A stretch of DNA of 64,000 bases from the NCBI GenBank assembly GCA_030390025.1, contig CM059432.1, forward strand, positions 17,982,001 through 18,046,000. The letters are read 5' to 3'. The notes under the pieces are model-generated. The model saw only the letters and a program-made list of their open reading frames with translations, was not told the DNA's origin and made no database searches. Positions 7,478 to 62,515 of the stretch are shown in pieces; positions within the stretch are counted from its first letter, which is position 1; every line of letters starts with the position of its first letter. A program made the position numbers and the translations under genes. The DNA is from Squalus acanthias (taxonomy: Eukaryota).

Positions 7478-8277
7478 AGACCTGGACGATGTTCAGGCTT
7501 AGGCTGATAAGTGGCAGGTAACATTCGCGCCACACAAGTGCCAAGCAATGACTATCTCCAACAAGCGAGAGTCTAACCACCACCCCTTAACATTCAATGG
7601 CATTACCATCGCCGAATCCCCCACCATCAACATCCTGGGGGGTCACCATTGACCAGAAACATAACTGGACCAGCCACATAAATACTGACAACAAGAGCAG
7701 GTCAGAGGCTAGGTATTCTGCGGCGAGTGTCTCACTTCCTGACTCCCCAAAGCCTTTCCACCATCTACAAGGCACAAGTAAGGAGCGTGATGGAATACTC
7801 TCCACTTGCCTGGATGAGTGCAGCTCCAACAACACTCAAGAAGCTCGACACCATCCAGGACAAAGCAGCCCGCTTGATTGGCACCCCATCCACCACCTTA
7901 AACATTCACTCCCTCCACCACCGGCGTACCGTGGCTGCAGTGTGTACCATCTACAAGATGCGCTGCAGCAACTCGCCAAGGTTTCTTCGGCCACACCACC
8001 AAACTCGCAACCTCTTCCACCGAGAAGGACAAGGGCAACAGGCGCATGGGAACACCACCACCTCCAAGTTCCCCTCCAAGTCACACACCATCCTGACTTG
8101 GAAGTATATCGCCGTTCTTTTATCGTCGCTGGGTCAAAATCCTGGAACTCCCTCCCTAACAGCACTGTGGGAGTACCTCCACCACATGGACTGCAGCGGT
8201 TCAAGAAGGCGGCTCACCACCACCTTCTCAAGGGCAATTAGGGATGGGCAATAAATGCTCCCATGAACGAATAAAAA
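7478..8277 (+). mobile_element. Second LINE family (CR1/L2-group), ORF2 C-terminus plus tail
   Basis: ADKWQVTFAPHKCQAM...IYKAQVRSVMEYSPLAW...DTIQDKAARLI; tail gggcaataaatgct...aataaaaa; near-identical copy at 15643-16361. Confidence 0.85.
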
Positions 8278-8728
8278 GCACGCACCGCCGGGGCCCTGCT
8301 GGGCCACCAGGGAGCGGGGTGCCAGCAAGAGTCCGGCACTCAAGAGGAGTGCCAGGCTGACAGATCGCAGCCGGCATCATGCAGCAGGAGGCCAGAGGGG
8401 GCAGGTGCTAGCAGGCGGCCCAAAAAAAAAGTGACCTGCCCCTTAATATCGCCGCCCGGGCCACAAGAACGTCCCCCCCCGACTCTGTTGGACATAGCGT
8501 CTGGTGGTAGGTCAGGCAGCGCGAGCCAAGTTTGCGGCCGGGGCGCTGCGCATGGCGATGATGTAATCGCCGGAGGCGCAGTACCACGGGGCACCACCAG
8601 CTACCACTGCCGCTAAATTTTGCAGGAGGAGTTAGCGGCGTCGCGCCCAGGCGCTAGTTGCTTTGCGCCCAGTTAGTGCCCTCTTGGGGCGCTACCGGGA
8701 GCCACAAAAGCAACCAAATTTTTCCCCC
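8278..8728. mobile_element. GC/CpG-rich non-autonomous element (possibly PIF/Harbinger-type MITE fragment)
   Basis: Abrupt GC-rich island ending aaatttttcccc, similar to the ggggtggaaatt end at 21818; only one terminus visible. Confidence 0.45.
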
Positions 8729-9614
8729 TCAGAAACCATTCTTAATCGCAAAATGGCTCCAGAATTGTATCTTGCCTCAGTTCTCCACCTTTTTCTTTTA
8801 AAAAAAAACAAACTTTTTTTCCCCCCAAACTAGAGAAATAAGTGTCTTGCCCTTAACCACACATTTTCTCTGTTCAGTCTGTAGAAGAAGTGTGCACCGG
8901 GCTATTTTGCCGGCACCCCGCTCCCTGGTGGCCCAGCAGGGCCCTGGTGCGTGTTTTTTTTTTATTTGTTCATGGGAATCACTGGCAAAGCCAGCATTTA
9001 TTGCCCACCCCTGATTTCCCTTGAGAAAGTACTGGAGATTCTGAAGACCAAAAAATGAGATTCTCTCATTACCTGTGATAACACTATAAATCCTGCCCTC
9101 CCCAGAGAAACAACTCCAGGTTCTCCCACATTATTTTAGTGGCAGACATTCTCAAAATACTGGCGTCATCCAATGTAGTTTAAACTGGCGATGCTTCCAA
9201 GTTAAAATTAATTAGTGAGCTCTGTGCAGTACAAAGTTCCAGCTGAGGGGCTATATACACATTCTGGTCCAATGAAATGGGATTGCAATACTAGTTAAAC
9301 AATGCTAAGGAACAGAATCCTTCTTCTCTTTATGCTCTTATAACGTACACTGCCGACCCACTCCTTCAACCTCTTCCTCCTGCTCCTCAAATGCAAGTTG
9401 TTAACTCTGTCATTCTGGGAAGAAATCACTTGGAAACATGCAACCAGCAATGCTGACGCTGTACTGGAGAATGGTACAGTGGTATCAGGACGGTTACACT
9501 GGAAAGCCACTTTCTTTGTGTGTTTAATATACGGGCATTCTCTATTTAAATTAGCACAAAGCTATGTTTGTACTCTAGGTAAATTAGTTTCAAATCAGAG
9601 CAATAAAACTGTCA

Positions 9615-10168: not shown

Positions 10169-11705
10169 ATGGATAGCAACAAGTCTGCACACTGGCGCCA
10201 TGGTATCAGGTTGTGCGTTTTTTTGTATTTTAGGCTCACTTCTTTCGATTTATTTTTGAAAGCAAATGTATGTATTTTTAAATAAATATATTCTAAAGGA
10301 AATTTCAGCTGGTATCAAATAGTTCGACTGCACTGGTACATCCAGACTGGGAATTATGCCAATTTTATTGCAGTAGACACAGCTGGCTGAATACTGACCC
10401 TTTGAATATGTCCCCTGATCAGGGCAGACCAGGCATCTTACTCGTGAACTTTCAGTGGGCCATTCATGAAGAAAGCATCTGGCACCGAATGTGCTCCATT
10501 TTCTTTTTTCAAAAAAAGGTCCAATTCTACTTCAGTGTAGTGGACTACAAAAATATTATTTTATTCCTCAAAGTACACTCTTTCCCACTTCAGAACTAGG
10601 GTGCTTTTATATTTGATGCAGTTAGACATATCACTCCACTTTGAATCAGAGGAAAAGTCACACCCAAAACATTAAGCTATTTCTCCTTCAAATGCTGACA
10701 GACCGGACCTATTGTACATTCACAGTGGGACTTATTTTCCCCTTGCACTTTATATTTCTATTTAAGAGATTTTGCATTTCTTAAATTTGTGGAGGGGGAG
10801 CAAGGAAAGTGAAAGAATGTTTCAATTCAGATTATGGCAATGCAAATACCTCTAGGAACTTTACTATTGGGTAGCTTATGAGTTTCATATTAAATATTAG
10901 TTTAATTTTATTATTGTTACAAAAGTCTGAAGCAGTAACATTTCGTTACTGCAGGGCCTGGACATTATTGAGATTAGGATCGGCCTCTTCAAGCTGAATG
11001 CAATTTAGTTGTTACAAGCTATTCACCCCAATCAAGCAGAGTAAAAAAAGTCAGTAAATATCCACAGAAACACTTGCACATCTCCTGCCCCCTGGAAAAA
11101 CAGCAAAAAGGAAACTAGATCAGACATTCAACAGCACTGTAATCTGAAATGTGCCACGGTTCCATTTCTGATCCTTTTAGGTTGAAAGCTTTCAGTTTAT
11201 ACATCTAAAATGCAATTTAAGAGGTATTCTTTGTTCAAGTCTTCAATGCTGTGGAATGCACTACCAGAGTTAGTGACTGAAGCAGAAACTAAGTCAACAT
11301 TTAAGAAGAGGTTAGATAAATTGTTGAAGGCAAAGAGAATTGGACGAGTGTCTGTGTGAAAGATAAACACCAACATGGACTGGTTGGGCCAAACAGTCTG
11401 CTCCCGTGTAGTAATTTCTATGTAATTCTAGATGTTGACCAACTTGCTGTGCACCTTAAATCACTGTTTTTATTCCAAGGATACCATTAATAACCAGGAC
11501 CCAAACACAAAATCACTAAAAAGCTAATTTTGGAATCACCAACAAGCACTATTCTCTGAAGTATGAATTAATGGGAACCACAAACTATCCCAACACATGG
11601 CGGTTCTTCAGCTAGTCATATTTAGAGTTTCAGTTTGAACATCTATTAGATTACTTCTCGAATACTGTAAACTATAAACGTTCTGTTTCGCACTTCAAGA
11701 CTCAC

Positions 11706-11810
11706 CTCTATAAATGCACTCAGTGTGGCATTTGTAGGATTGTGGGTAATGAGAAACCTCATGTGTTTGTAAGAAACTTCCACGGGTGCAGGGCGATTCA
11801 TACGGGCCAT
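11706..11810 (-). CDS. PTP4A3: PRL phosphatase (protein tyrosine phosphatase 4A, PTP4A3-like), first coding exon, aa 1-35
   Basis: ATG at 11810 reads [35 protein letters not shown], followed by donor GAG|GTGAGT (plus-strand actcac 11700-11705); 105 nt. VSYKH and TLS match PTP4A3 rather than PTP4A1 (VTYKN, TLN) as recalled. Confidence 0.93.
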
Positions 11811-12273
11811 GGGGTTGGAACCAGTGGCACAGAAGTATATCAGTACGAAGTCTGCAAATGATCCCAATCTCTCCAAGTTAGTACATGTGCACTATCTTCA
11901 TAGGATTTTGGACTTCTTATTGCAGCAAGGGAATGAAATATTCTTCTTTGAACCTTTTTGTCAGTCTCCTCTTTTCGCTTCTCGTTATTCACTCTCCTTC
12001 AAACCATGAACGATTCTACATTCAACAGTCCAGTCACCCCATTTGGAGATGCATTGCAAGGCAGTAAGAATATAACTGGAGATGCTCAACAGGCCAAGTC
12101 TGTTATCTCTCCTATTCTTATCAAAAAAACTTTTGATGGTTAATCCAAAGTGGTCTTCTTCAGGTTCTTGCTCAGATTTACTTGTCTGCAAAGATGCTAT
12201 GTTGTGCTGGGCAATAGCCACTGCTGTTTCTCACAAACTCCATAAAAGTGTGCTGAAAGGAGCTGTTGAACCA
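11811..12273 (-). other. 5'-UTR part of the first coding exon of PTP4A3-like
   Basis: Strong acceptor tatttctttctctttctAG|tggttc (AG at 12274-12275). Repeat-free stretch contiguous with the ATG; PRL genes have long leaders in this exon. Confidence 0.75.
12178..12243 (-). promoter_or_regulatory. Conserved-peptide upstream ORF, 21 aa MEFVRNSSGYCPAQHSIFADK*
   Basis: ATG 12243 to TAA 12178, 30 nt inside the predicted exon start. Same length and C-terminus (C-x-AQHSIFADK*) as the human PTP4A2 uORF peptide as I recall it (MAILSVRADFCQAQHSIFADK). Confidence 0.85.
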
Positions 12274-13321
12274 CTAGAAAGAGAAAGAAATAATAGTTTT
12301 AAAGCTGCACAGCTGGAAACTTACACATCTGAAGTAACTGCCAGTACCAGGATGATATTATGGTAGAAGAGCAAAATGGATGACTTGTCTCATTTTCTTG
12401 TTGGATTACTGACTAGTGAATGCATCTAATACAAAGAGTTTGCATCATACCTCACCTAAAATGTCAATCTTCAAACGATTTTGTAAAAGCCATATGACAA
12501 GTGTTTCTTGCTTTCAAAAGAAAATGCCAACACTGTACTGTATTTAGTACAAACAAACTAGGCACAGTGGGATATGCAAAAACAACTTATAAGACAAGAC
12601 TCACCCTTCAAGTATGTTCCCAACATCCCTGAGCAATGTTTTGCATTTTCTATTGTTCTCGAGTTATTCTACTCATCATACCAGCTATCCAACCATCTAG
12701 CACTTCTTACACCTTTTCCTTGGCAATGTGGATGCAATTAAGTGTTTTGGCAGTACCTGCCTTAACCTGTCTTGTGGGTTTGCTAGTTGGACTGCACAAG
12801 GTGGTTAAAATACAAATATGCTTTAAAATTAAAAACTCGTTAGGCTTGTATTACGATTCGGACTCAGAAGACTGGTAATTATGGGATAAAACAGGAGAAT
12901 ACAAAACTTCTTTAGATGCAGATCATAAACTGGAATTAAAATCTTGACTGCTGCCAACTGAACATATCAAAATAATAATTTATTACAGTAATTACTATTC
13001 ATTAATGGGAGACCATACCAATGCTTTGACTTTTAGATAAGTATTTACATGTGTACTTTTCATACATTACACATTCAGCATGAATTAAAACAGATTAACA
13101 GCTCATGTACATACAGAGACACATATACAGTAAATACTGCCATCCGTCCTGCGTTTAGCTGTACAAAAATGAGTGAGAAAGTGGTCAAAAAGATCATTGT
13201 CTGATTCAGTACGAAGGAGGTGATCAACTGGGATGGCCATAAAGAACTTGGGGTGCTTAAGCAGCAACAGTTTTCATTCAGCTTCCTTACAACAATTGGT
13301 TTTAAATACTCTATCGTCAAA

Positions 13322-14996: not shown

Positions 14997-15092
14997 AAGA
15001 TGAAAGGTCATCGATCTAAAATGGTAACTGTTTCTCTCTCTCTCCACAGATGCTGCCTGACCTGCTGAGTATTTCCAGCATTTTCTGTTTGT
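14997..15092 (+). mobile_element. Single decayed arm of Penelope-like repeat family A
   Basis: gatgaaaggtcatcgatctaaaa...cacagatgctgcctgacctgctgagtatttccagcattttctg matches the arms at 24931/50543/52167. Confidence 0.75.
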
Positions 15093-15642
15093 GTTCTTTT
15101 TAAATCTGGGTGTACCTGGTTTCTTAAATTCAGGAGGTTTAACCAGGTTGCAGTCAGCTCTACAATGCACACGAGGAACTGGTGGTGCTAGCACAGGTGT
15201 GGCTGAATATAAAAGCAGCTTAATAAGAAGCGAGTTATCACAGGTGTAGGCCTTTTGTCAGCACTCATCTCCTTCGATGTAAGGGAAATGCATGCTGCAT
15301 TTTCTGCAAAAGTTGACATGCAGTATAGCATCAAGCCGCCATTTGAACTCTTTACAATGTTGGGTCACTAAGGTCTCGATAACACGCAATAGCATGGGAA
15401 ATTGTCACATAGCTGCACGCATTTTTAGTCAGTATTTCAGCAAGGCATAATGATGGACATATAAAGTTTTCATACTACGTACACAAAGTGAAAAATATTT
15501 TATCCTGCTAACTTGGGTTTGTCTGGAGAAATAATTTTCAGCTGTACAGCACTAGGGTGGAGTAATGGTGGTTATATTAGAACACCAAATGATCCCAGTA
15601 ACCACATTGTACTTGAATGAAAAGCAGTTAAATCCAGTACAG

Positions 15643-24075: not shown

Positions 24076-24930
24076 TCAGAAACTTATAATTCAGTTTCAG
24101 TTGAGTCTAATGTGATGGGTGGACTCCCTATAATGCGCAGGAATACTGCCTCACCCACATACAAGTAAAACGTTGGCAAGCCCATGAAATCATGATTATT
24201 GGAATGTGCAAAAAATTTATTTTGAAAAAGATATTTAAACTCATGGATGGGTTTAGAATTTAAGAGTTTTCTAAGTATTTATACTGCTAGTCGCTTTTTG
24301 TATTCTTTTGCTTCTGTATAATTATGAATTCTTGTAAATAAATTCAATATTCGTTTTAGCCTGAATAATATAGTCCAACAATGTGCCGCTTTCCACATTT
24401 TAGAGGGTACAGAGCAAACCATGCATTTTCCAGTGGGAAATAGAGGTAAAAGATCCTGGTTAACCCTGGAACACTTTATACCCATTCAGGTCATGCATAC
24501 TAGGGCATTTTCAATTCATACAAGATACAGGCCTGCTTCTGGATACTGCGTTTTGCTGTTGAGGCAGAGTTTAAAGTGCTTGCAGACAATCTGAATTATA
24601 ACAACCACCATCTGTGTCAATGGAGTGTGATAGTCAATTCTGAGACCCCAACCCCTTCTTCAACCTGTAATTTTTTAAATAAAGAGACTCCCAATTCAGA
24701 TATGACATTTTACCAAAAACATTTCTATTCTATTCTGGGGCTTTGTTGTACCCCCGATAATCTCTATAAAGTGCAACCTGCAAAGACCCAGATGCTCCAC
24801 TATAGCACAACCTCAAGCATTTGCTTTCCTTTTGCTGGGCTGAAAGTTAAGCTTTTAAAAAGCGTGTGCCAAGCCATGTCTTTTTTTATGCAGAAGTATT
24901 TCAGGTAGATGACTATATTCTGTAACTGTA

Positions 24931-25162
24931 ATACAAAAAGAAAATACTGCAGATGCTGGAAATCTGAAATAAAAACAAAAAATGCTGGAGATACTCAGCA
25001 GGTCAGGCAGCATCTGTGAAGAGAGAAACAGAGTTAACATTTCAGGTCGATGACCTTTCATCAGAACTTCTGACGAAAGGTCATCGACCTGAAACGTTAA
25101 CTCTGTTTCTCTCTTCACAGATGCTGCCTGACCTGCTGAGTATCTCCAGCATTTTCTGTTTT
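24931..25162. mobile_element. Palindromic Penelope-like insertion (family A) with hammerhead motifs
   Basis: Inverted arms of ~100 bp meeting at ~25067; direct repeat tatattctgtaactgta at 24914-24930 and 25163-25179. Confidence 0.8.
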
Positions 25163-25800
25163 TATATTCTGTAACTGTATTGTTTTCTCTGGATGCAAAT
25201 CATGAAAAGTTCACAAAATTGGATTTTGTAGCAAAAATTCACTTTTACATATATACCAGCATTACGGATGTTAATCATTTAAAAATTCACACATTGGATC
25301 AATATACACGTGTGTTTTTAAGACCGGAAAGAACAAGAATCTGAACTTTTTGTTGCCATGGATGAGTCTCTAAGGATTTTGGAAGCGAGGACTTAAAAAC
25401 AAAACACAGTACTAAGCCCCTGAAACAGATTAAACCCAAGCTCAAGGCCCGGTATTACAGCAGAAGAATTGCATCACTCACTAGTAAATCATTATCTTAG
25501 GAGTGAGCACTAGATCTCTGTAGGACTCTGAATGTCAACATATACTACGGTTTATTGCAAATTGTTACAGTAAGCTGACCTTACTCTTCTGGTGTTTTAT
25601 GATCACAAGACCTGAGGCACAGGGTAAAACCCTGGGAAGTGGTTTTATTATTCCAGCTGGGCTTTGTATTTTGCATTTCAGTTCATATTCATCACATTTA
25701 ATGAAGCACATGACTTGAGAAGCTCACAGTAAAGCCCTCGAGAAACTCATCAAGACCAGTAAAAAAACAAGTATGTCAAGTCCTCAGACAGAAGTACAGC

Positions 25801-40465: not shown

Positions 40466-40529
40466 AAGCTACAACCTCCCGACTGAGAGGCTAAATATAA
40501 TTAACACAAAGGCAGGTCCCAGAGATCAT

Positions 40530-40742
40530 GATATGGAGATGCCGGTGTTGGACTGGGGTGGACAAATGTGAGAAGTCACACAACACCAGGTTATAGTCCA
40601 ACAGCTTTATTTGAAATCACAAGCTTTCGGAGCGCTGCTCCTTCGTCAGGTGACCTGACGAAGGAGCAGCGCTCCGAAAACTTGTGATTTCAAATAAAGC
40701 TGTTGGACTATAACCTGGTGTTGTGCGACTTCTCACATTTGT
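40530..40742. mobile_element. Palindromic Penelope-like insertion (family B) with hammerhead motifs
   Basis: Inverted arms of ~90 bp centred at 40652; direct repeat ccagagatcat at 40519-40529 and 40743-40753. Confidence 0.82.
40618..40652 (-). ncRNA. Putative minimal type I hammerhead ribozyme (family B, host-gene sense strand)
   Basis: CAC-CTGACGA-AGGAGC agc GCTCC-GAAA-GC-TT-GTG: both catalytic boxes, stem II GGAGC/GCTCC, stem I CAC/GTG, palindromic AAGCTT. Confidence 0.7.
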
Positions 40743-42664
40743 CCAGAGATCATTGCTTAACTGACATGAATGGTCAAGAATATTTGTGCAGAAATGGAGT
40801 ACACATACTTGTACTCAGAATAGCAGCTGGCATATTTTAGCTACAAAGCCATTAAAAAAAAAGGTTACAGTAGAATATGTTTTACGAAATAAACAAACTT
40901 GGCATGTAAGCCACCATTCTGAGCCTCTAAAGGACCATCTGTTCAGGAGTTCCGATTGCTGTCATGCTGTTTGTACTACTATTCGTGGTTGCCAAGTCTA
41001 CAGTCACACGCTACTTTTGCATTCTTCAAGTGATCACATCATTGATTCTGCCTGCACACAAAGCTGGTGGCAGAGCTGAACTAAACTTCACATCAGAACA
41101 TGCCAAAAGCTCTTAATCAAAAAGCTTGTTGTGTCACTTTAATTTTACTGGTTCCTTTTTTAAAAGCTCCGTACATTATGCGATACATTAACGTAGTGTG
41201 CAATTGAAGCCCTTGACAAGTTTTAAAATAAATTAACTTCTAAGATTTTCCTTTTAAACAGATCATAAAATACTGAAGAACTAAATGCTCGAAAGGTTCA
41301 TTCTGATTTAAACTGCAGAACAGAAATAATTTTACCACGTGTTAGGGCTCTCAGTGCAGTGGAACTGCCCCATTTAAATTGTGGGTCAATTCCAGGGCAC
41401 CAAAAATAGCACGTGCAGATCTTGAAATTATATAATAAACACTGATTTTCTAGCTGTGTACTTGTCCTGGTGTCAGGGAGGATCTGTGAATGGCAGTAAT
41501 GAGAAAAACAATATTGCTGGCCTGGATGAGAGGGCGGAACACTCGATTTTGTCCGCAACCGGAAAAGGGCCCAGAATTTCTTGCAACGGAGAGTAAATTT
41601 TGCTGTTTTGCATGCTGATCTAGTCGTTGTGAATTGACTCCAAAGTTTTGTAGGAAACCAATATGAATAGGCCGCTGCGAGGATAGTGGCAAATCAGAAA
41701 CAGCACAACTGTTCCGAAGTAGGCCAACAGGTCAGCTTCATTTGTACAGGCAGGCTTTCGAAGACCTGTGCCATATTATTTACAAGTTTTAAAATTAAAT
41801 TAAAAATACTGGAATTCGAAAATAGATACAGTTGCTTCATTTGCTAATTGGAAACAAAGCTTTTTTCCGAGCTGAATACAGGGTTGGCTTTAGGTTTCAT
41901 CGTCTTGGGCCTAAAGTGCCTACTCTAATCTATCCCACTGGCTCGAGAGAGTCGATTTATACATCATGACATCTTAATCATGGACACTGTTGGAGATCGG
42001 ATGTAATATTACTAAATACAGACTCTCGTTTCCATTTTCTTTGTAAAGACGTGATTCATGAATGCTTTGCAAGTGGATATGAGGTATATATGTTAATTGT
42101 ATACAGTGCATTAACATTGTACTCTGCTTGTGATTAACCAGAATAACCATTAATATGTCCAGAGTTAAGCAGCTATGTTTTTTTGTGGAACAACCCAAAA
42201 TATATATTTACAATTATTTGCTTTAATATGGACTCATGATGTTGTAACAGTGGAATGGTACCACGTCAGAGCAATAGAATCTAGGCGTTGGTGTAAATTA
42301 CAGCACACATTTCACTCCTAGTAATGCTTCGTGGCGAGAGCTAAATCCAATGTAAACCCAGCAGCAGCTCAGTCAGACACTTCAACTGCTCGTCAATTTG
42401 TTTATAGGCTCCATTCAGGAGACCCCTCAGGTTTTTCGTACAAGGGGGCAGGTAAATTTGTTTCAGTGCATAAAAGATCAGTTTTCCAATATATCACTCT
42501 CTCAAACAAAAGATTGCTAGATTGTCCTTCAAATATTAAGTATGGAGATATCTTTGGAAATACTTTTTTTAAATTGTAAAATTTTTTTTTAATGTAAAGC
42601 GTGACTTAAGTATCATCTCACTTTTGAGAAAGATCAGAGGGAAATGTCAGGCACAGCATCAGCA

Positions 42665-49430: not shown

Positions 49431-50633
49431 CCTCATCAAATGAGAGTAGAACACTTTCCATTTTAGTTATCCAGTGTTACTCCAAGTTCACATTTAGTAC
49501 AGCTAAAGAGTAAGCTTTATTCTGCACTCCCCAGTAACCAGCCTTAATCCCAACCTCACTGCACCATCCTCCATGCCAGCTAGGCTGAGAGTGTGTCAAT
49601 TAGAGGCAGGTTTGTGTTGTGGACTTTTACTAGGAACTGGACCAAAATTACCCAAACAGGTTTCACATTTGAACCTTACAGCCAGCGGACTTTCATCTCA
49701 AATCTTCAATACATTTGAACCCAGTTATCAAAGGTGTGAAGGCAATGTCTAAAGCACTGCACCAGCCATTCCATCCCTATACTGGGGATATAAATGCATG
49801 ACTTATACTTGATGGATTCATCTCCACATACAGAATTCTGCTTTTGTGGCGCATAAACTAGCAGATATTGTGGCTGCGTGCAGTATCATTTGTAAGGCAG
49901 TGAATGGGCCATACTGACATCAGTTCAAACCATTTTGGTACATTTGTATTTAGTTGGTGTTTATTGAAGTTGGTCTCAAAGTATATTTTAAGCGAATTGC
50001 AGTGTCTTACTTTTTTTCGCCCCTTTTTCTTAGAGATTAGGACTGCAACAAAAACACATGAATGAGAAGTAAACGATTCATTGGTTTAAAATGCTGCTGG
50101 AATAAGGGTTCTTGTTAAATAGAGTACTGAACTGTTGACTGTCAACTTGAACAAAATACTGCAGGCAGTAACCTAAATACGATTTCTCTTTCTTTGTTCT
50201 TGGCAGCAAGATCAACTGGTGGAGCAGCTGATTTCCTTCTGCACGTAGCTCAAAGTCGAATATTTTGTTTTTCTCAGAATTGCTTATCCTCTGAAATGAA
50301 ACAGAACTCCGTATCATTCAGACAACACACGCATGACTAATACTCTAAGGGTTAATTATTTTAAGCGCACACTCCACCTTTTTTTCTAGGTAATCCACTT
50401 CATCTCTAATCCCTCTCGCACAAACATGAAATTGCTTCCCCACCATACAGTTCCCTAGTAACTTGGCCACTAGCTAATGAAATTCATGCAATGAGAACAG
50501 CCTCATCTTCGTAATCACCTAATCTACATCGAGTAATTTACAATAGCAAAATGCTGCGGATGCTGGAAATCTGAAATAACAGAAAATGCTGGAAACACTC
50601 AGCAGGTCAGGCAGCATCTGTGGAGAGAAACAG

Positions 50634-50670
50634 AGTTAACGTTTCAGGTCTGTGACCCTTCGTCAGAACT
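50634..50670 (-). ncRNA. Putative minimal type I hammerhead ribozyme (host-gene sense strand)
   Basis: Exact reverse complement of the 50833-50869 motif. Confidence 0.7.
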
Positions 50671-50832
50671 GGAAAAAGTTAGAGATGTAACAGATTTTAA
50701 GCAGGGGCAGGGAAAGGGAAAGGGGAGGGGAGGGGAGGAAAGAAGAGAGACGGTCCCTTTTGTTCTTTCCTCCCCATCCCTCCCCCCTTTCCCTGCCCCT
50801 GTTTAAAATCGGTTACATCTCTAACATTTTCC

Positions 50833-50869
50833 AGTTCTGACGAAGGGTCACAGACCTGAAACGTTAACT
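50833..50869 (+). ncRNA. Putative minimal type I hammerhead ribozyme
   Basis: AGTT-CTGACGA-AGGGTC aca GACCT-GAAA-CG-TT-AACT: both catalytic boxes, stem II hairpin, stem I AGTT/AACT, palindromic AACGTT stem III. Confidence 0.7.
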
Positions 50870-51455
50870 CTGTTGCGCTCTCCATGGATGCTGCCTGACC
50901 TGCTGAGTGTTTCCAGCATTTTCTGTTGTTATTTGAGTGGTTTACATTCACTTTTAACTTGGCGCTCTGGCATAAAGTTGGTCACCTCCGAAGATCCGAT
51001 GACATTGGAGACTTGTCGTGGACCCCCATGTGCCATTAATCTCCACTTATTTTTAATGGTAAAGTTATTAGATGAGCAGCAGAACCTGAGGAGCAAGTGC
51101 TGCATGGAGGTTATAGATTTTATTTTCAGCAACACTCTCCTAGGATTGGATATAGATTAAAATTGCCTCAAGGTTTAACATTAACTAGAGAAGGGAATTT
51201 ACTGCATGCCACATGATTGGTACGGACAATAAAAACACCTGCCAAAAGGTATGAATAATAAAGAATAATTCCTAGAATTTTACAGCACATGAGGAAACCA
51301 TTCAGCCCATCACACTTGTGCCAGCTCTCTGAAAGAGCTGTTAATTTAATCCTATTCCCCTGCCATTTTCCCATATCCATTTTCTTTGGCAAATACAGTC
51401 CCCCACCATTTATAGTGAACACGTTGGTGTTAATGCAATTTTCCCACTATACGCC

Positions 51456-51900
51456 GGTCAGCCGTGGCTCAGTTAGTAACAATCTCGTCTGAGTTAGAAG
51501 GTTGTGGGTTCAAGTCCCAATCAAGAGACCTGAACACTGACACTCCAGTGCAGTACTGAGGGAGTGCTGCGCTGTCAGAGGTGCTGTCTTTCGGATGAGA
51601 CGTTAAACAGAGGCCACGTCTGCCCTCTCAGGTGGACGTAAAAGATTCCATGGCATTATTTCGAAGAGGAGCGGGGGCATTTTCCCTGCTGTTCTGGCCA
51701 ATATTTAACCCTCAACCTACGTCACCGAAACAGATTATCGAGCCATAATCACATTGCTGTTTGTGGGTCCTTGCTGTGCACAAATTGGCTGCTGCTTGTC
51801 CTACATTGTAACAGTTACACTTCAGAAGTACTTCATTGGTTGTAAAGCGCTTTGGAACGTCCTGTGGTTCATGAAAGGCGCGCTACAAATGCAAGCCTTT
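51456..51900 (+). mobile_element. Full-length tRNA-derived Deu-domain SINE (SacSINE1/AmnSINE1-related)
   Basis: A box tggctcagttag, B box ggttcaagtcc (51507-51517), core cagtactgagggagtgctgc...gtctttcggatgagacgttaaac, L2-like tail. Confidence 0.82.
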
Positions 51901-52166
51901 CTATACACGGTGGATGGTAAAAACAAAAATGGTATGTACCAAACATATTTTTTTTTAAAACAGGCACTCGCTATTTAGCAACTGCCTCTCCTACTTCTTA
52001 GCAGATGTATCCAAAATCTCATCACCAAGGGAAGTCGCATTTTAATGAGGTACGAACAGCTGATTGAAACTGCTTGAAGACCCAATTTTGGCTTAAATCA
52101 GCAGATCTTTTGAAAATCGGTCAGCACAGTAGAGGGGATTAACAGGAGTGAACAGCTGATTGAAAC

Positions 52167-52366
52167 TAAAGCAAAATACTGCAGATGCTGGAAATCTGAA
52201 ATAAAAACAGAAAATGCTGGAAAACACTCAGCAGGTCAGGCAGCATCTGTGGAGAGAGTTCAGTTCTGATGAAAGGTCAGCGAGCTGAAACGTTAACTTG
52301 GTTTCTCTCTCCACATATGCTGCTGTCTGACCTGCTGAGTGTTTCCCAGCATTTTCTGTTTTATTT
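52167..52366. mobile_element. Palindromic Penelope-like insertion (family A), left arm internally truncated
   Basis: Inverted arms; direct repeat agctgattgaaac at 52154-52166 and 52367-52379; plus-strand agttctgatgaaaggtcagcgagctgaaacgttaact. Confidence 0.8.
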
Positions 52367-53089
52367 AGCTGATTGAAACAAAAGTATTCAATACTGAGCA
52401 TACTTGGCCACACTGCAGCAGGGCAGAAATACAAGCTTCAAATTACAAAGAATCCAATAAAATCTTAAAAAGGGCATCACATAACAAATCTGTCTAGCAC
52501 ATCTACTTTGCACCTGGGCTGCAGGATGGGCACAAGTCACTGAGTGCACTCTAACTTGTGAAATCTCTAGACTACTTCTCTATTTTGTATTACGTTTTAC
52601 TACGTTAAGGACGGTATATAAATGCAAGTTGCTGTTGTCCGATGGCACGCAATAACAGGAACAGATCCAAACTGGAGAAAGGCCAAGAAATTAAATCCCT
52701 CGGTTTCCTTTGAAGAAGCCACATTGGATGTCATTAAGTAGATTACTTAGGCAGTTGGGGGAAAAATAAAGCTAGACGACTCCCATGTCTAACACCATCC
52801 TGTTCTTCAGTTCCCTAACTCAACCACAAAAATATCACACAAGCATATCTCAATACCACCACGGCAACACATGTCCCTCTTCTATTTTAGAAGGTCTGAA
52901 AGACAGCTTGCCAGTAGCACCTCAGTGCAGTTTTGTTATTCTCATCAATTGTCACAAGCACCAGCAAAACTAAACATCCTGGAAGATTTCGATGGTGAGC
53001 TTGGAGACTCATTGTTCAGTTACTTTTCAGCCAAGGTACCAGGGCATACATACAGGACATCACTGTCCAAAAAAGTTCATCTTTGGCCA

Positions 53090-54112
53090 CAGCACAAACT
53101 TTACCTTTTCCATCAACTCCATCCCCTGCCACTGTCTCAGGTTGAACGAGACTTTTCGCAACCTGGGCATCCCCATTAGACCCCAAACCCCTATCGTCTC
53201 CATTACAGAGCCCGCCTACTTCCAACTTCATAACATCGCCCGTCTCTGCCACTCAAACCCTCATCCATTTCAGTTACCTCCAGACTCGACCATTCCAATG
53301 CTCGCCTGGCTGGTCTTCCATCCTCTGTAAACTTAAACTCATCTAAAACCTGCTGCCCATATCTTATCCTGCACCAAGTCCCGTTCACCCACCACCCCAT
53401 TTTTGCTGGTCTATATTGACTCTGTACCCCAATTACAAATTAAAAATTCTTATCTCTCTTCATAATCTCACCCCTCCAGCTGTAACCTCAGTAGCCTAGT
53501 GGTTATGGTACTAGACTAGCTCTTTAGAGTTCAAATCTCACCATGGGAAGTTGTGAAATTGAATTCAATAAATCTGGTAGTTTGTGGCCAGATACCAGAA
53601 AATGACCATGAAATCTGCAGGACTCTTATAAAAATCCAACTGGTTCACTGTCTTTCAGGAAAGGGAACCTACCACCTCTACCTGGTCTGGCCTACATGCG
53701 GCTCCCATCCCATACAATGTGGTTGACTCTTAATGCCTTCAGGGCAACTAGGGATGAGCAATAAATACTGCCCTGCTAGCATTGCCCACATCCCAAGAAC
53801 AAAGATTAAAAACCCTCCCTGAAGTCTCTGTTCCTTTGACTCCAGTTTCATTCTGCATTCTCCCTCCCCCCACCCTCGTCTTCAGCCACCTAGGCACCAG
53901 GGAATTTCCTGCTAAACCCCTCTGCCTCTCCAACTCCGTCTTCCTTTAAGAGCCTCCTTACTGCCCACCAGTTTGGCCCAGCTTTTGACCACCCCCACCA
54001 AATATCTCCTCCCTTATTTCAATGTCCTCTTTTATTCCCCCTTTACATCTCGGTGAAGCACCTTGGGACATTTTTCTACATTAAAGGCACTATATAGAGG
54101 CAACTCATTATT
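53090..54112 (+). mobile_element. L2 LINE 3' fragment split by a family-B SINE
   Basis: AYFQLHNIARL motif and L2 tail aaggcactatata; L2 resumes after ~53812. Confidence 0.75.
53491..53812 (+). mobile_element. SINE family B, full length
   Basis: Head gtagcctagtggttatggtactagactag...gagttcaaatct; tail gggcaactagggatgagcaataaatactgccctgctagcattgcccacatccc. Confidence 0.75.
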
Positions 54113-55549
54113 GTCCAAAATATCCTGAAAGTAGTATTTCAGCATTTATATGTACATTTAATGTAGATTAAAAAACATCCCAAGGCACAAGGCAAAAAGA
54201 GAATGCTGAGCCAAAGGAGATGGAGGGGTGACCAAAGGAATGGTCAAAGTTGTGGGTTTCAAGGAGGGTCTTAAAGGAGGAGGGGGAAGTGGAGAGGTTT
54301 AGGAAGGATGTCTGTACTATTGGTAATGTAAAGTTTTGCACACTGATCAACAAACAAGCATCAAAAGTATACAATGAATGAGATTGCATTGGAGGAGGGA
54401 GTTTAAAATGAAAGAAGTCTGGGAGTGATTGTATAATCATCACTTTTAATGTCTAGACAATTGTGGCAAAGCAAAAATACTTAACAGAATGCTGGAACAT
54501 ATAACCAGAGTACAAGGAATTTTGAGATTATCCTGAGGCTTCACAATGTACTGGGCAGAGTTCACTTGGAGTAATGTGTTCAGTTTTGGTCACCACACAA
54601 CAAAAATACAAGTGCTGGAGAAGGTGCATAGACTATCAAGGCTGATTCCAAGTCTAAAAGGAGATAAGCTAAGAGAAAGAAGCTAAAGGGCTACAGTCTA
54701 GAAAGGAGATGACCTCAGAGATATATAAAAATGGTAAAGATACGGCAAACCCTGTCTGTTACTTCAAAGTAAACCAATTAAAGTAGTACTCGAGGACATG
54801 AATTCACATTAGGGCAAGGGTGCCCATGATACATCCTGTAGGTCCCATGGCTCAAACACTAGTATGGACCAGTTGGGCCGAATGACTGGTTTCTGTGCTG
54901 TAAAATCTATGTAACCCTTTGAGTCTAGCAATTTGGCCCTTGAAGCCAAGAAATGTCATCCTATTTGGGCTTATATATTTATTTGTTTGTGTGTATTGTA
55001 GATCTGGAGGTTTATCTGTTCTTAGCACTGATTATTTATGAATAATCCCCAATTCAGAAAACCAAAATTAATCATCAGCAACATAAAATATATACAAATT
55101 AAAGACCCCTAAGGCTACACCATATGTACTTAAGCATTCTTTGAAGGCAAAAATCTTGGACTTACCCTGCATTACTGGTAATTAATTTGAAAACCGGTAC
55201 AAGGAAGAACTTTCAAAAAATACCTAATGTTTGGAAAAAATCTACCATACAGGGTAGTAAAGGAAAAAAAGTTGGAACATTGAAAATGCACCTTACTTCC
55301 TGTGACGTTTTTGTCACACTTTTGGGTCGACCTTTCCATAATAAAAGTTTCTATGTACACATTTATAAATGGAAACAGATTATGTAACCTGCCACACTGC
55401 AATTACACTCTGTCCAGTGGCAGCACCTCAGTGTTGTTATCTTCCAACTCTTCAGCCAGTAGTACAAACACCTATGCTTCACCCAACTGATTCTCAAACT
55501 GCCTAATTTCTGATATTTAACTATAAATAATATAAAATCAAACATATTA

Positions 55550-59909: not shown

Positions 59910-62515
59910 TCGGATTCATTCATGGGGCACTGGCACCAGTACTGGGGAAAGAGGGAGCTGTTCCGTTAGGACGGGCTCCACTTAAACCGGGCTGGGACCA
60001 GTGTCCTGGCGAACTGAATAACTAGGGCAGTGTAAAGGGCTTTAAACTAATGAACTAATGAAGGGGGGGGGGGGGTGGAGGATTCAGGAAAGAGTAAATT
60101 TAAAAGCAACGAGAGAAATGTCAAGGCTCTAGAGCAGAGTAGCATTTTGGGTAAAAATAAGCAGAGTGGGTCAGAGAGTGTAACAAAGGTAATAAGGCAT
60201 CAGTGGCAGGTGACATCAGGGAAAAAAAGAAATAAGTCAAAGCTAAAGGCACTATATTTGAATGTGCGAAGCATTCACAACAAAATAGATGAATTAATAG
60301 CGCAGATAGAAAATAGGTTTGATCTAATAGCCATTACGGAGATGTGGTTGCAATGTGGCCAAGGTTGGGAACTAAATATTCCAGGATACTTAACTTTTAC
60401 AAGAGATAGGCAAAATGGAAAAGGAGGCAGGGTAGATCTGATAATAAGGATGGGATAGAGACAGTAGAGAGAAAGGATCTTAGCTCTGAAAATCAAGAAG
60501 TAGAATCAGTTTGGATGGTACTAAGAAACAGCAAGGGGCAGAAAACATTGGTGGAAGTTGTTTTATAGATCCCCAAACAGTAGTTGTAATGTAGGGCAGA
60601 GTATAAATCAGAAAATTAGAGGCACATGTAACAAGGGTAATACAGTAATCATGGGGGACTTTAATCTACATATAGACTGCGCAAACCAAATTTACAGTAA
60701 TAGTGTGGAGGACGAATTCATGGAATGTATACAAGATAGTTTTCTAGATCAGTATCTTGAGGAACCAACTAGGGAACAGGCTATTTTAGATCTAGTATTG
60801 TGCAACAAAAAAGGGTTAATTAGTAACCTTGTAGTAAAGGGGCCTTTAGGGAAGAGTGACCATAATATGATTGAATTTTATATTGAGTTTGAAAGTGATA
60901 GTTAAATCAGAAACTAGGGTCTTAAATCTAAACAAAGCAAACTACGTAGGCATGAGGGGCAAGTTGGCTAAGGTAGACTGGGAAACTACATTAAAAGGTA
61001 TGATGGTAGAGAAGCCATGGCAAGCATTTAAAGAATTAATACATAATTTACAACAAATATACATTCCTTTAAGGCACAAAAACCCCACAGGTAAAGTGGC
61101 CCAATCGTGGCTAACAAGAGAAGTTAAAGATAGTATTAGATCAAAGGAAGAGGCTTATAATGTTGCCAAAAAGAGTAAGCCTGAGGATTGGGAGGATTTT
61201 AGAATTCAGCAAAGGAGGACCAAAAAATTGATAAAGGGAAAATAGAATACGAGAGTAAACTAGCGAGAGACATAAAAACAGACTTTAAAAGCTTCTATAG
61301 GTGTGTAAAAAGGAAAAGATTAGCGACAATAAATGGATTTTAAGAAGGCATTCAATAAGGTGCCACACAAGAGGTTATTAAACAAAATTAGGGTTCATAA
61401 GATTGGGGGTAATATACTAACATGCATTGAGGATTGGTTAACGGACAGAAACTAGAGAGTAGGAATAAACGGGTCATTTTCGGGTTGGCAGGGTGTAACT
61501 AGTGGGGTACCGCAAGGATCAGTGCTTGGGCCTCAGCTAGTCACAATCTATATCAATGATTTGGATGAGGGGACCAAATGTAATATATCCAAGTTTGCTG
61601 ATGATACAAAGCTGGGTGGGAATGTAAGTTGTGAGGAGGATGCAAGGAGGCTTCAAGGGTATATAGACAAGCTAAGTGAGTGGGCAAGAACATGGCAAAT
61701 GGAATATAATGTGGAGAAATGTGAAGTTATCCACTTTGGTTGGAAAAATAGAAAAGCAGAGTATTTTTTAAATGGAGAGAGACTGGGAAATGTTGGTGTT
61801 CAGAGGGACCTGGGTGTCCTTGTACACGAATCACAAAGTTAACATGCAGGTACAGCAAGCAATTAGGAAAGCAAATGGTATGTTGGACTTTATTACAAGA
61901 GGATTTGAGTACAAGAGTAAAGACGTCTTACTGCAATTATATAGGGCCCTGGCGAGACCACACCTGGAGTATTGTGTACAGTTTTGGTCTCCTTACTCAA
62001 GGAAGGATATACTTGCCATAAAGGGAGCGCACCAAAGGTTCATCAGACTGATTCCTGGGATGGGAGGATTGTCCTATGAGGAGAGATTGAGTAGACTAGG
62101 CCTATATTCTCGAGTTTAGAAGAATGAGAGGTGATCTCATTGAAACATACAAAATTCTTACAGGGCTTGACAGGGTAGATGCAGGGAGGATGTTTTCCCC
62201 TGGCTGGGGAGTCTAGAACCAGGGGTCACAGTCTCAGAATAAAGGCTTGGCCATTTAGGACTGAGTTGAGGATAAATTTCCTCTCAGTGAAGTGAATCTT
62301 TGGAATTCTTTACCCCAGAGGGCTGTAGAGGCTCAGTCATTGAATATGTTCAAGACAGAGATCGATAGATTTTTGAATATTAAGGGAATGAAGGGATATG
62401 GGGATAGTGCAGGAAAGTGAAGTTGAGGTAGAAGATCAGTCATGATCTTATTGAATGGCAGAGCAGGCTTGAGGGGTGGAATGGCCTACTCCTGCTCCTA
62501 TTTCTTATGTTCTTA
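59910..62515 (+). mobile_element. Longest CR1 LINE copy: end of ORF1 (esterase-like), endonuclease, internally deleted RT, 3' UTR; inactivated
   Basis: DGLHLNRAGT (SGNH block V-like) near 59970; LYLNVRSIHNK, AITEMWL, MGDFN, GKSDHN (APE endonuclease); jump at ~61332 to DFKKAFNKVPH; FADDTKL; multiple stops and frameshifts. Confidence 0.93.

Follow-up and report, generated by a model that had tools for sequence, protein, structure and literature searches.

The head-to-head inverted repeat at positions 50543-50934 of the window, by which we mean the whole 64,000-nucleotide stretch of DNA analysed here, carries a minimal hammerhead motif on each strand, and it raises the question of what kind of insertion leaves such a structure behind and whether the two motifs do anything today. 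We think it very probable that this palindrome is a dead, non-coding stub from a single insertion event of a Penelope-like element (PLE), namely a truncated double pLTR with minimal hammerheads. Self-BLAST shows 89.3% self-complementarity over 50575-50930 (356 nt), which bears out the near-perfect inverted arms described in the original prediction, and the parts of the element lie along the window as follows.

50531..50542 (+): left target-site duplication, 12 bp, abutting the element end
50543..50752 (-): long arm, a 5'-truncated pLTR copy, sense on the minus strand
50543..50573 (-): 31-nt tail, on the long (left) arm only
50575-50627/50878-50930: inverted arm pair 2, 53 nt, 94%, set apart from pair 1 by a small indel
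50623-50740/50763-50880: inverted arm pair 1, 118 nt, 88%
50634..50670 (-): hammerhead motif of the long arm (minimal type I), with cleavage predicted at GUU, between 50638 and 50637
50741..50762: non-complementary centre of 22 nt, where the two 5'-truncated ends meet
50753..50934 (+): short arm, a tailless pLTR copy, likewise 5'-truncated, with its sense on the plus strand
50763..50834 (+): pyrimidine tract with CTAAC (50821-50825), followed by a CAG that ends where helix I begins; a candidate for the 3' end of a PLE intron
50833..50869 (+): hammerhead motif of the short arm (minimal type I), with cleavage predicted at GUU, between 50865 and 50866
50935..50946 (+): right target-site duplication, 12 bp

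The degenerate 12-bp direct repeat that had been proposed to flank the palindrome was recovered exactly at the proposed ends; its copies at 50531-50542 and 50935-50946 are identical at 10 of 12 positions and abut both ends of the palindrome. Taken alone, this target-site duplication (TSD) is weak, since 3.2% of 20,000 random pairs of 30-mers from the window score equally well. The palindrome is real, but its arms are unequal, and the 31-nt tail, present on the left only, had been overlooked. Across 149 columns the arms differ by eight events, including one CpG that decayed separately in each arm, and this fits arms that would have been identical at insertion and then drifted neutrally. None of the eight differences falls inside the 37-nt hammerhead (P ~0.10 under uniform placement, not significant); the identity of the hammerheads between the arms therefore neither demonstrates nor excludes selection.

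The 50543 element is one of several in the window that share its anatomy, and the sister insertions are listed below.

14999..15095 (+): single decayed arm of the 50543 family, without tail
24914..25179: same family; palindrome 24932-25165, perfect 17-bp TSD, tail left, two hammerhead cores
40519..40753: insertion of a second family, built alike; an 11-bp TSD flanks palindrome 40559-40745, which has its tail on the left and two hammerhead cores
52154..52384: same family; palindrome 52170-52366, 18-bp TSD (17/18)

All four hammerhead-bearing palindromes, which belong to two unrelated families, follow one plan: a TSD, a tailed long arm, a head-to-head short arm and the second TSD copy. The duplication surrounds the whole unit in each case (12, 17, 18 and 11 bp), and, unlike that of the 50543 element, the sister TSDs are clear (P values of 0.0013, 0 and 0 against random 30-mer pairs). 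Tails of ~29-37 nt stand on one arm only in three sister insertions, compared with 31 nt in the 50543 element; the hammerhead of the 52170 element sits on the arm without a tail and is missing from the tailed one. Four of the five family insertions in the window are palindromic, and in all four copies of the 50543 family the end of the tailless arm falls at almost the same position. The tail lies on the left in all four palindromes (24932, 40530, 50543 and 52170), which puts the sense of the tailed arm on the minus strand, that of the PTP4A3-like exon discussed below (two-sided P = 0.125); the single arm at 14999 agrees with the short arms in having no tail and in lying on the plus strand. The centres of the palindromes all differ, falling in the pyrimidine tract (50543), in helix I (two insertions) or past the hammerhead on one arm (the fourth), as is expected from variable 5' truncation. 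In the two helix-I-centred insertions, one from each family (25060-25075 and 40645-40660), the centre falls on the 5' strand of helix I; the helix is complete on the tailed arm and lacks its first bases on the tailless arm, and this strand could be a preferred truncation point.

The abundance of the arms might suggest that the palindrome itself is what moves, as a non-autonomous element of MITE-like or retrozyme-like kind whose hammerheads on both strands serve an RNA cycle. Symmetric rolling-circle RNAs have one hammerhead per strand, as does this element, which also shares with mobile units its TSDs, long inverted arms and very high abundance. In DNA run X5, from the best-matching organism, summed contig depth reaches 1.25-3.56 million on the arms, 77,000 at the centre and 15-36 on the unique flanks; depth on the arms is thus ~10^4-10^5 times that on the flanks, a figure to be taken as an order of magnitude and not as a copy number, and the centre is ~20-45 times rarer than the arms. 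This rarity of the centre argues against a palindrome copied as a unit, as do the different centres of all four window copies and the variation of TSD length from 11 to 18 bp, and the ends are no inverted terminal repeats because the tail is one-sided. The full RNA is predicted to fold neither ribozyme, and animal retrozymes are defined, in the covered text of Li et al. (2026, bioRxiv 10.64898/2026.07.22.740005), as head-to-tail tandems. We therefore regard a mobile palindrome as very improbable. Two class assignments were rejected separately: a MITE or other DNA transposon, on the one-sided tail, the TSDs of 11-18 bp and the differing centres, and a non-LTR retrozyme, on the inverted arms and on finding no long direct repeat in 49500-52000. 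The depth profile shows that most copies stop near the hammerhead, and the 50543 palindrome is an ordinary leftover of a very abundant PLE, no special locus. Its arm depth is of the same order as that of the abundant repeat near 51.5 kb; this very high-copy repeat (51450-51870), whose depth equals that of the PLE arms, presumably resembles a tRNA-derived SINE.

As to the hammerheads themselves, the two motifs are identical over all 37 nt, and the core CUGANGA ... GAAA ... UH is intact in both arms, with the triplet GUU; the cut sites given above are deduced from the standard numbering of hammerheads. Five base pairs (GGGUC/GACCU) make up stem II, an unpaired A follows CUGACGA, and the unpaired A between positions 9 and 10.1 recurs in every one of the seven hammerhead copies found in the window. 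Stem III forms a palindrome without a loop (ACGU in the 50543 element, AGCU in the long arm of the second family), which single changes have broken in two of the seven copies. A strict descriptor of the minimal hammerhead matched four times in the 64-kb window; in 200 first-order Markov simulations the matches averaged 0.02 and never exceeded 1. The claim of two intact hammerheads, one per strand, accordingly holds for both strands if 'intact' is read in the sense of sequence; the motif as originally spelled dropped three letters, those of the 5-bp stem II and of the unpaired A after CUGACGA. Anatomy, sister copies and published work support both the minimal type I class with a palindromic stem III and the Penelope origin that had been proposed.

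Covariation had been suggested as a check on stems I and II, and it was found between families. Among the seven hammerhead copies (six distinct sequences, two sequence families), 94.4% of the 54 cells of stems I and II are paired and seven of nine pairs show two-sided changes, whereas slid controls gave at most 41.7% paired cells and one two-sided pair. Stems I, II and III covary between the two families, in what is essentially one independent comparison; within the 50543 family the sole paired change among the few copies compared is one-sided. The signal, being nearly all one between-family contrast, speaks for a fold kept between families and not for selection on the 50543 copy. The suggested check against hammerhead models was made with the curated ones of Rfam: at gathering score there were 0 matches for the palindrome, and by E-value no hammerhead family stood among the 84 matches, almost all of which were generic fits to miRNA hairpins. 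Identity as a miRNA precursor was rejected, these being generic long-hairpin fits below gathering score. According to the covered parts of Cervera and De la Pena (2014, PMC4209133), the minimal form of the hammerhead needed a descriptor of its own.

The arms may also bear further traces of the PLE from which they would derive. The arrangement of pyrimidine tract, CTAAC and CAG upstream of and into helix I is mirrored on the left arm, and the purine/pyrimidine centre pointed out in the original prediction is explained by this tract, which lies upstream of the hammerhead and is present twice. The adenine of CTAAC is only ~10 nt from the AG, which is short, as a branch adenine usually lies 18-40 nt away. 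The arms end 95 and 121 nt from a codon in the hammerhead core that reads ACG in both arms of the 50543 element; in the 24932 copy, an ATG in the core opens a 47-codon frame through arm and tail (24921-25061, minus strand). Translations of the PLE repeat occur inside predicted proteins, including a horn-shark gene model that absorbed the repeat. We infer a parent ORF with reverse transcriptase (RT) and GIY-YIG domains. Among the 150 longest of the 302 window ORFs of at least 60 aa, Pfam found no GIY-YIG or other PLE domain, and the same scan gave RVT_1 twice, Exo_endo_phos_2 once and two weak unrelated matches. A protein search with the arm frame returned 0 longer homologues among 15 candidates, and against representative proteins there were 17 matches, none with RT or GIY-YIG among the ten that were looked up; a match to a bacterial VWA protein was judged to be chance. 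Scans for copies with flanks gave 0 in metagenome contigs, where the hammerhead pattern was used, and 0 in viral contigs. Seven metagenome loci with a 21-mer were also judged to be chance (53-67% GC, at most 33 aligned letters), and 25 prokaryote-genome loci with a 17-mer were taken as chance by their titles.

How would such a stub be made? The simplest reading is that of one integration event, in which the GIY-YIG endonuclease of the PLE probably made a staggered cut, as the 12-bp TSD suggests, and in which, by analogy with the anole element PAc, reverse transcription probably started at two neighbouring sites near the pLTR end, 31 nt apart; two starts at this spacing would leave one arm tailed and the other without a tail. 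Both cDNAs would have run through the hammerhead and the pyrimidine tract and broken off shortly afterwards, at a length of ~180-210 nt, and the two truncated copies would have ended joined head-to-head between the TSDs, their sequences drifting apart neutrally after insertion. A palindrome joined in this way from two copies would be built at integration and would not itself be a mobile unit, and the hammerheads would travel with the pLTR as passengers; in the parent element, their activity is most likely that of dimers on tandem transcripts, assisted by protein.

The same PLE origin is also compatible with a different integration step, fold-back, which is the main rival for the second arm where we assume a second reverse-transcription event: a truncated cDNA would prime itself, be copied back and stop before the tail. 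Self-priming is inferred from palindromes at inverted junctions in the covered parts of Arkhipova et al. (2013, PMC3846280), and the junctions at ~25067 and ~40652 are near-perfect palindromes. Moreover, both arms of one insertion have letters in common that other copies lack, the 24932 arms differing from each other at 3 of 98 columns and by 8.5-13.9% from the arms of the 50543 and the long-matching 52259 copies; such common letters, however, also follow if one RNA templated both arms. The fixed end of the tailless arms, found in four of four family copies, fits a second RT start site, and the tailless arm of the 52170 element has ~45 nt, including the hammerhead, that are absent from the tailed arm, so that it is no copy of that arm unless a later deletion intervened. 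We keep fold-back as a tentative possibility for this one step and continue with the PLE stub made by two reverse-transcription events.

Whether the hammerheads of such a stub could act depends on the RNA that contains them. In a read-through transcript of either strand, the antisense arm would be made first and would pair with the ribozyme arm in a hairpin of ~170 bp, and no cleavage would be expected. The minus-strand RNA of the palindrome folds at -301.3 kcal/mol (z = -32; none of 100 shuffles folds as well), and either strand is predicted to give a hairpin of 166-176 pairs (-301 and -320 kcal/mol). Computed at six transcript lengths per strand, the probability of stem II is at most 1e-14 with the antisense arm present and 0.03-0.85 without it. 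As an equilibrium prediction, the hiding of the ribozyme in a hairpin by the antisense arm is sound for either strand. The sequestration that had been proposed thus stands in silico, but it is not special to the PTP4A3 strand: both strands behave alike because the head-to-head geometry puts the antisense arm first in every transcript.

The further claim, that such intronic insertions could be self-silencing, keeps the predicted masking but presupposes a ribozyme that would otherwise cut. This is doubtful, because a lone minimal hammerhead is inactive in vitro and that of the anole is protein-dependent (PMC11167929), and because the monomer is predicted to misfold; in the covered parts of PMC4209133, a single minimal hammerhead gave no in vitro cleavage and dimers gave low cleavage. 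The isolated monomer prefers a rod in which the core is paired with the stem III region (-9.1 vs -5.9 kcal/mol), the predicted probability of an active-type hammerhead fold being 0.002, and by nearest-neighbour energies a two-molecule hammerhead-type fold reaches -8.5 kcal/mol against a co-fold minimum of -22.9; these monomer and dimer energies ignore tertiary contacts and protein help. A motif masked by the hairpin is unlikely to cut alone, and, on these models, the palindrome now probably does nothing. Processing by ADAR or Dicer, also raised in the original prediction, is plausible for any such duplex, if transcribed. In run X19, taken to be RNA, where contigs are pooled over all family copies, substitutions comprised 11 A>G and 12 T>C, compared with 10 and 16 in DNA run X5, and with this pooling the counts carry no information on editing; cover of the unique flanks in X19 is near zero and uninformative on transcription.

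The palindrome had further been placed in the PTP4A3 pre-mRNA. The minus-strand first coding exon on which this placement depends is real: a PTP4A3-like exon near 11.7-11.8 kb matches PTP4A3 chains at 34 of 35 residues (E 2.5e-18), the region 11698-12280 (-) holding this first coding exon and a ~470-nt part of the 5' UTR after a splice acceptor. The exon is ~39 kb away from the palindrome, though, and a transcript spanning both is presumed. Short motifs for later PTP4A3 exons had no match in the window, and no CpG island marking a PTP4A3 promoter was found beyond 50.9 kb at the thresholds used. As for the wider setting, the DNA looks like that of a cartilaginous fish, to judge from the arm frame inside the horn-shark gene model and from LINE fragments in the window. 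Broken pieces of a LINE ORF2 with endonuclease and RT Pfam matches lie at 60054-62116 (+), and we take the LINE fragments of the window (RVT_1, Exo_endo_phos_2) to be of CR1 type. Around the CpG-rich stretch 8001-9000, an inverted similarity between 8214-8328 and 8907-9038 (76% over 132 columns) probably represents nested or paired mobile elements; a weak inverted similarity between 53925-53995 and 54225-54297 (73% over 73 columns) looks like opposed repeat fragments.

The splice acceptor before the PTP4A3-like first coding exon implies that an upstream intron exists, and one might ask whether the host has adopted the palindrome as a regulatory hairpin or ribozyme in this 5' intron and keeps it by selection. 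The insertion is indeed common to two other organisms, and neither hammerhead has mutated, the two being identical. The right junction is spanned by contigs from organisms B and C, which reach 44 letters into the element, with a flank divergence of ~3-4%, so that the insertion predates their split from organism A; by the 31-letter rule the left junction is bridged in no listed record, the right junction is not bridged in X5, and no empty site appears among the 15 joints shown of >2,100. The 52170 insertion, with its broken stem II, is likewise common to B and C, however, which means that sharing reflects age. The arm divergence of ~5% is of the size expected of neutral drift, given the ~3-4% flank divergence to B and C, and the hammerhead identity is, at P ~0.10, not significant. 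Adoption by the host is hardly probable at all, and the sharing is that of an old PLE stub.

A broader reading extends the PLE stub to its kind: head-to-head stubs would be a self-masking form tolerated in introns, and the main pool of endogenous long double-stranded RNA and ADAR substrates of sharks. The antisense arm would hide both the hammerhead and the splice acceptor of the pLTR, and stubs would persist in introns cleared of solo sense copies; with 10^4-10^5 loci, the stubs would resemble the inverted Alus of primates, and each would be made in one step by a dimeric PLE enzyme that primes both target strands. Hints in this direction are that four of five family insertions are palindromic, that four of four tailed arms lie in the PTP4A3 sense (P = 0.125) and that the second arm of 52170 is no fold-back copy; we consider this reading unlikely as a whole. 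The 50543 stub alone matters little, being one of very many of a known kind. The many short, TSD-bounded double insertions like it, however, preserve the two RT start sites together with the two points of truncation, and they could decide between fold-back and two-strand priming, an integration step of PLEs left open by Frangieh et al. (2024, PMC11167929). Transcription of many intronic copies would, if it occurs, also supply cartilaginous fishes with large amounts of long and almost perfectly paired double-stranded RNA.

A search of titles and abstract openings, largely outside subscription papers and Repbase/Dfam, returned nothing on this shark PLE family or on editing of PLE palindromes, and the covered text of PMC4209133 names no shark family. 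In its covered parts, that paper describes dual minimal hammerheads ~100-700 bp apart on opposite strands in Schistosoma. The 50543 hammerheads resemble those described there in being of type I, with a 4-bp helix I, an unpaired base 5' of stem II, G10.1 and a palindromic 15.2-16.2 without loop 3, and in that most copies are truncated; according to the same parts, the PLE intron of D. virilis ends where helix I begins on its 5' side, and the CAG at helix I of the 50543 element matches it. They differ in a stem II of 5 bp, compared with 7-8 bp in Schistosoma, and the predicted cleavage triplet GUU is counted as another difference.

The structure of the insertion has its own precedents. Rotifer PLE insertions with an inverted pLTR, a 31-bp tail and TSDs of 8-10 bp are reported in the covered parts of PMC3846280, and those of Craig et al. 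(2021, PMC8557442) give an inverted 5'-truncated copy and a 30-40-bp tail as general PLE features. The 50543 element agrees with the PLEs of these covered texts in its head-to-head inverted 5'-truncated copy, its tail at one end and the TSD around the whole unit; it differs from the rotifer PLEs in that TSDs are 11-18 bp and abundance is far higher in the shark window. Both 50543 copies are truncated inside the pLTR, so that no ORF is left, unlike in published PLE insertions.

PAc, the Poseidon-type PLE of Anolis carolinensis (Frangieh et al. 2024, PMC11167929), offers the closest view of the enzyme: its protein, a predicted dimer, cuts and extends both target strands, and the sequence that separates two RT start sites makes up its tail. 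In PAc the hammerhead contains the start of the ORF, and reverse transcription begins 111-118 nt further on within that ORF; correspondingly, the arms here end 95 and 121 nt from the core codon, which in the 24932 copy is an ATG followed by an open frame. Cleavage by the PAc hammerhead required protein, and insertion in vitro did not depend on the hammerhead. Unlike PAc, the 50543 copy has ACG as its core codon, and the element is known here from pLTR sequence alone. Non-LTR retrozymes, which according to the covered text of Li et al. (2026, bioRxiv 10.64898/2026.07.22.740005) are PLE-derived and are reported in one chondrichthyan genome, are likewise non-coding and carry type I hammerheads, but theirs are head-to-tail on the same strand, whereas those of the 50543 element are head-to-head on opposite strands. 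PLE stubs of this kind were described between 2013 and 2021 and paired minimal hammerheads on opposite strands were reported in 2014; what is new here is a further instance of this known kind of PLE stub.
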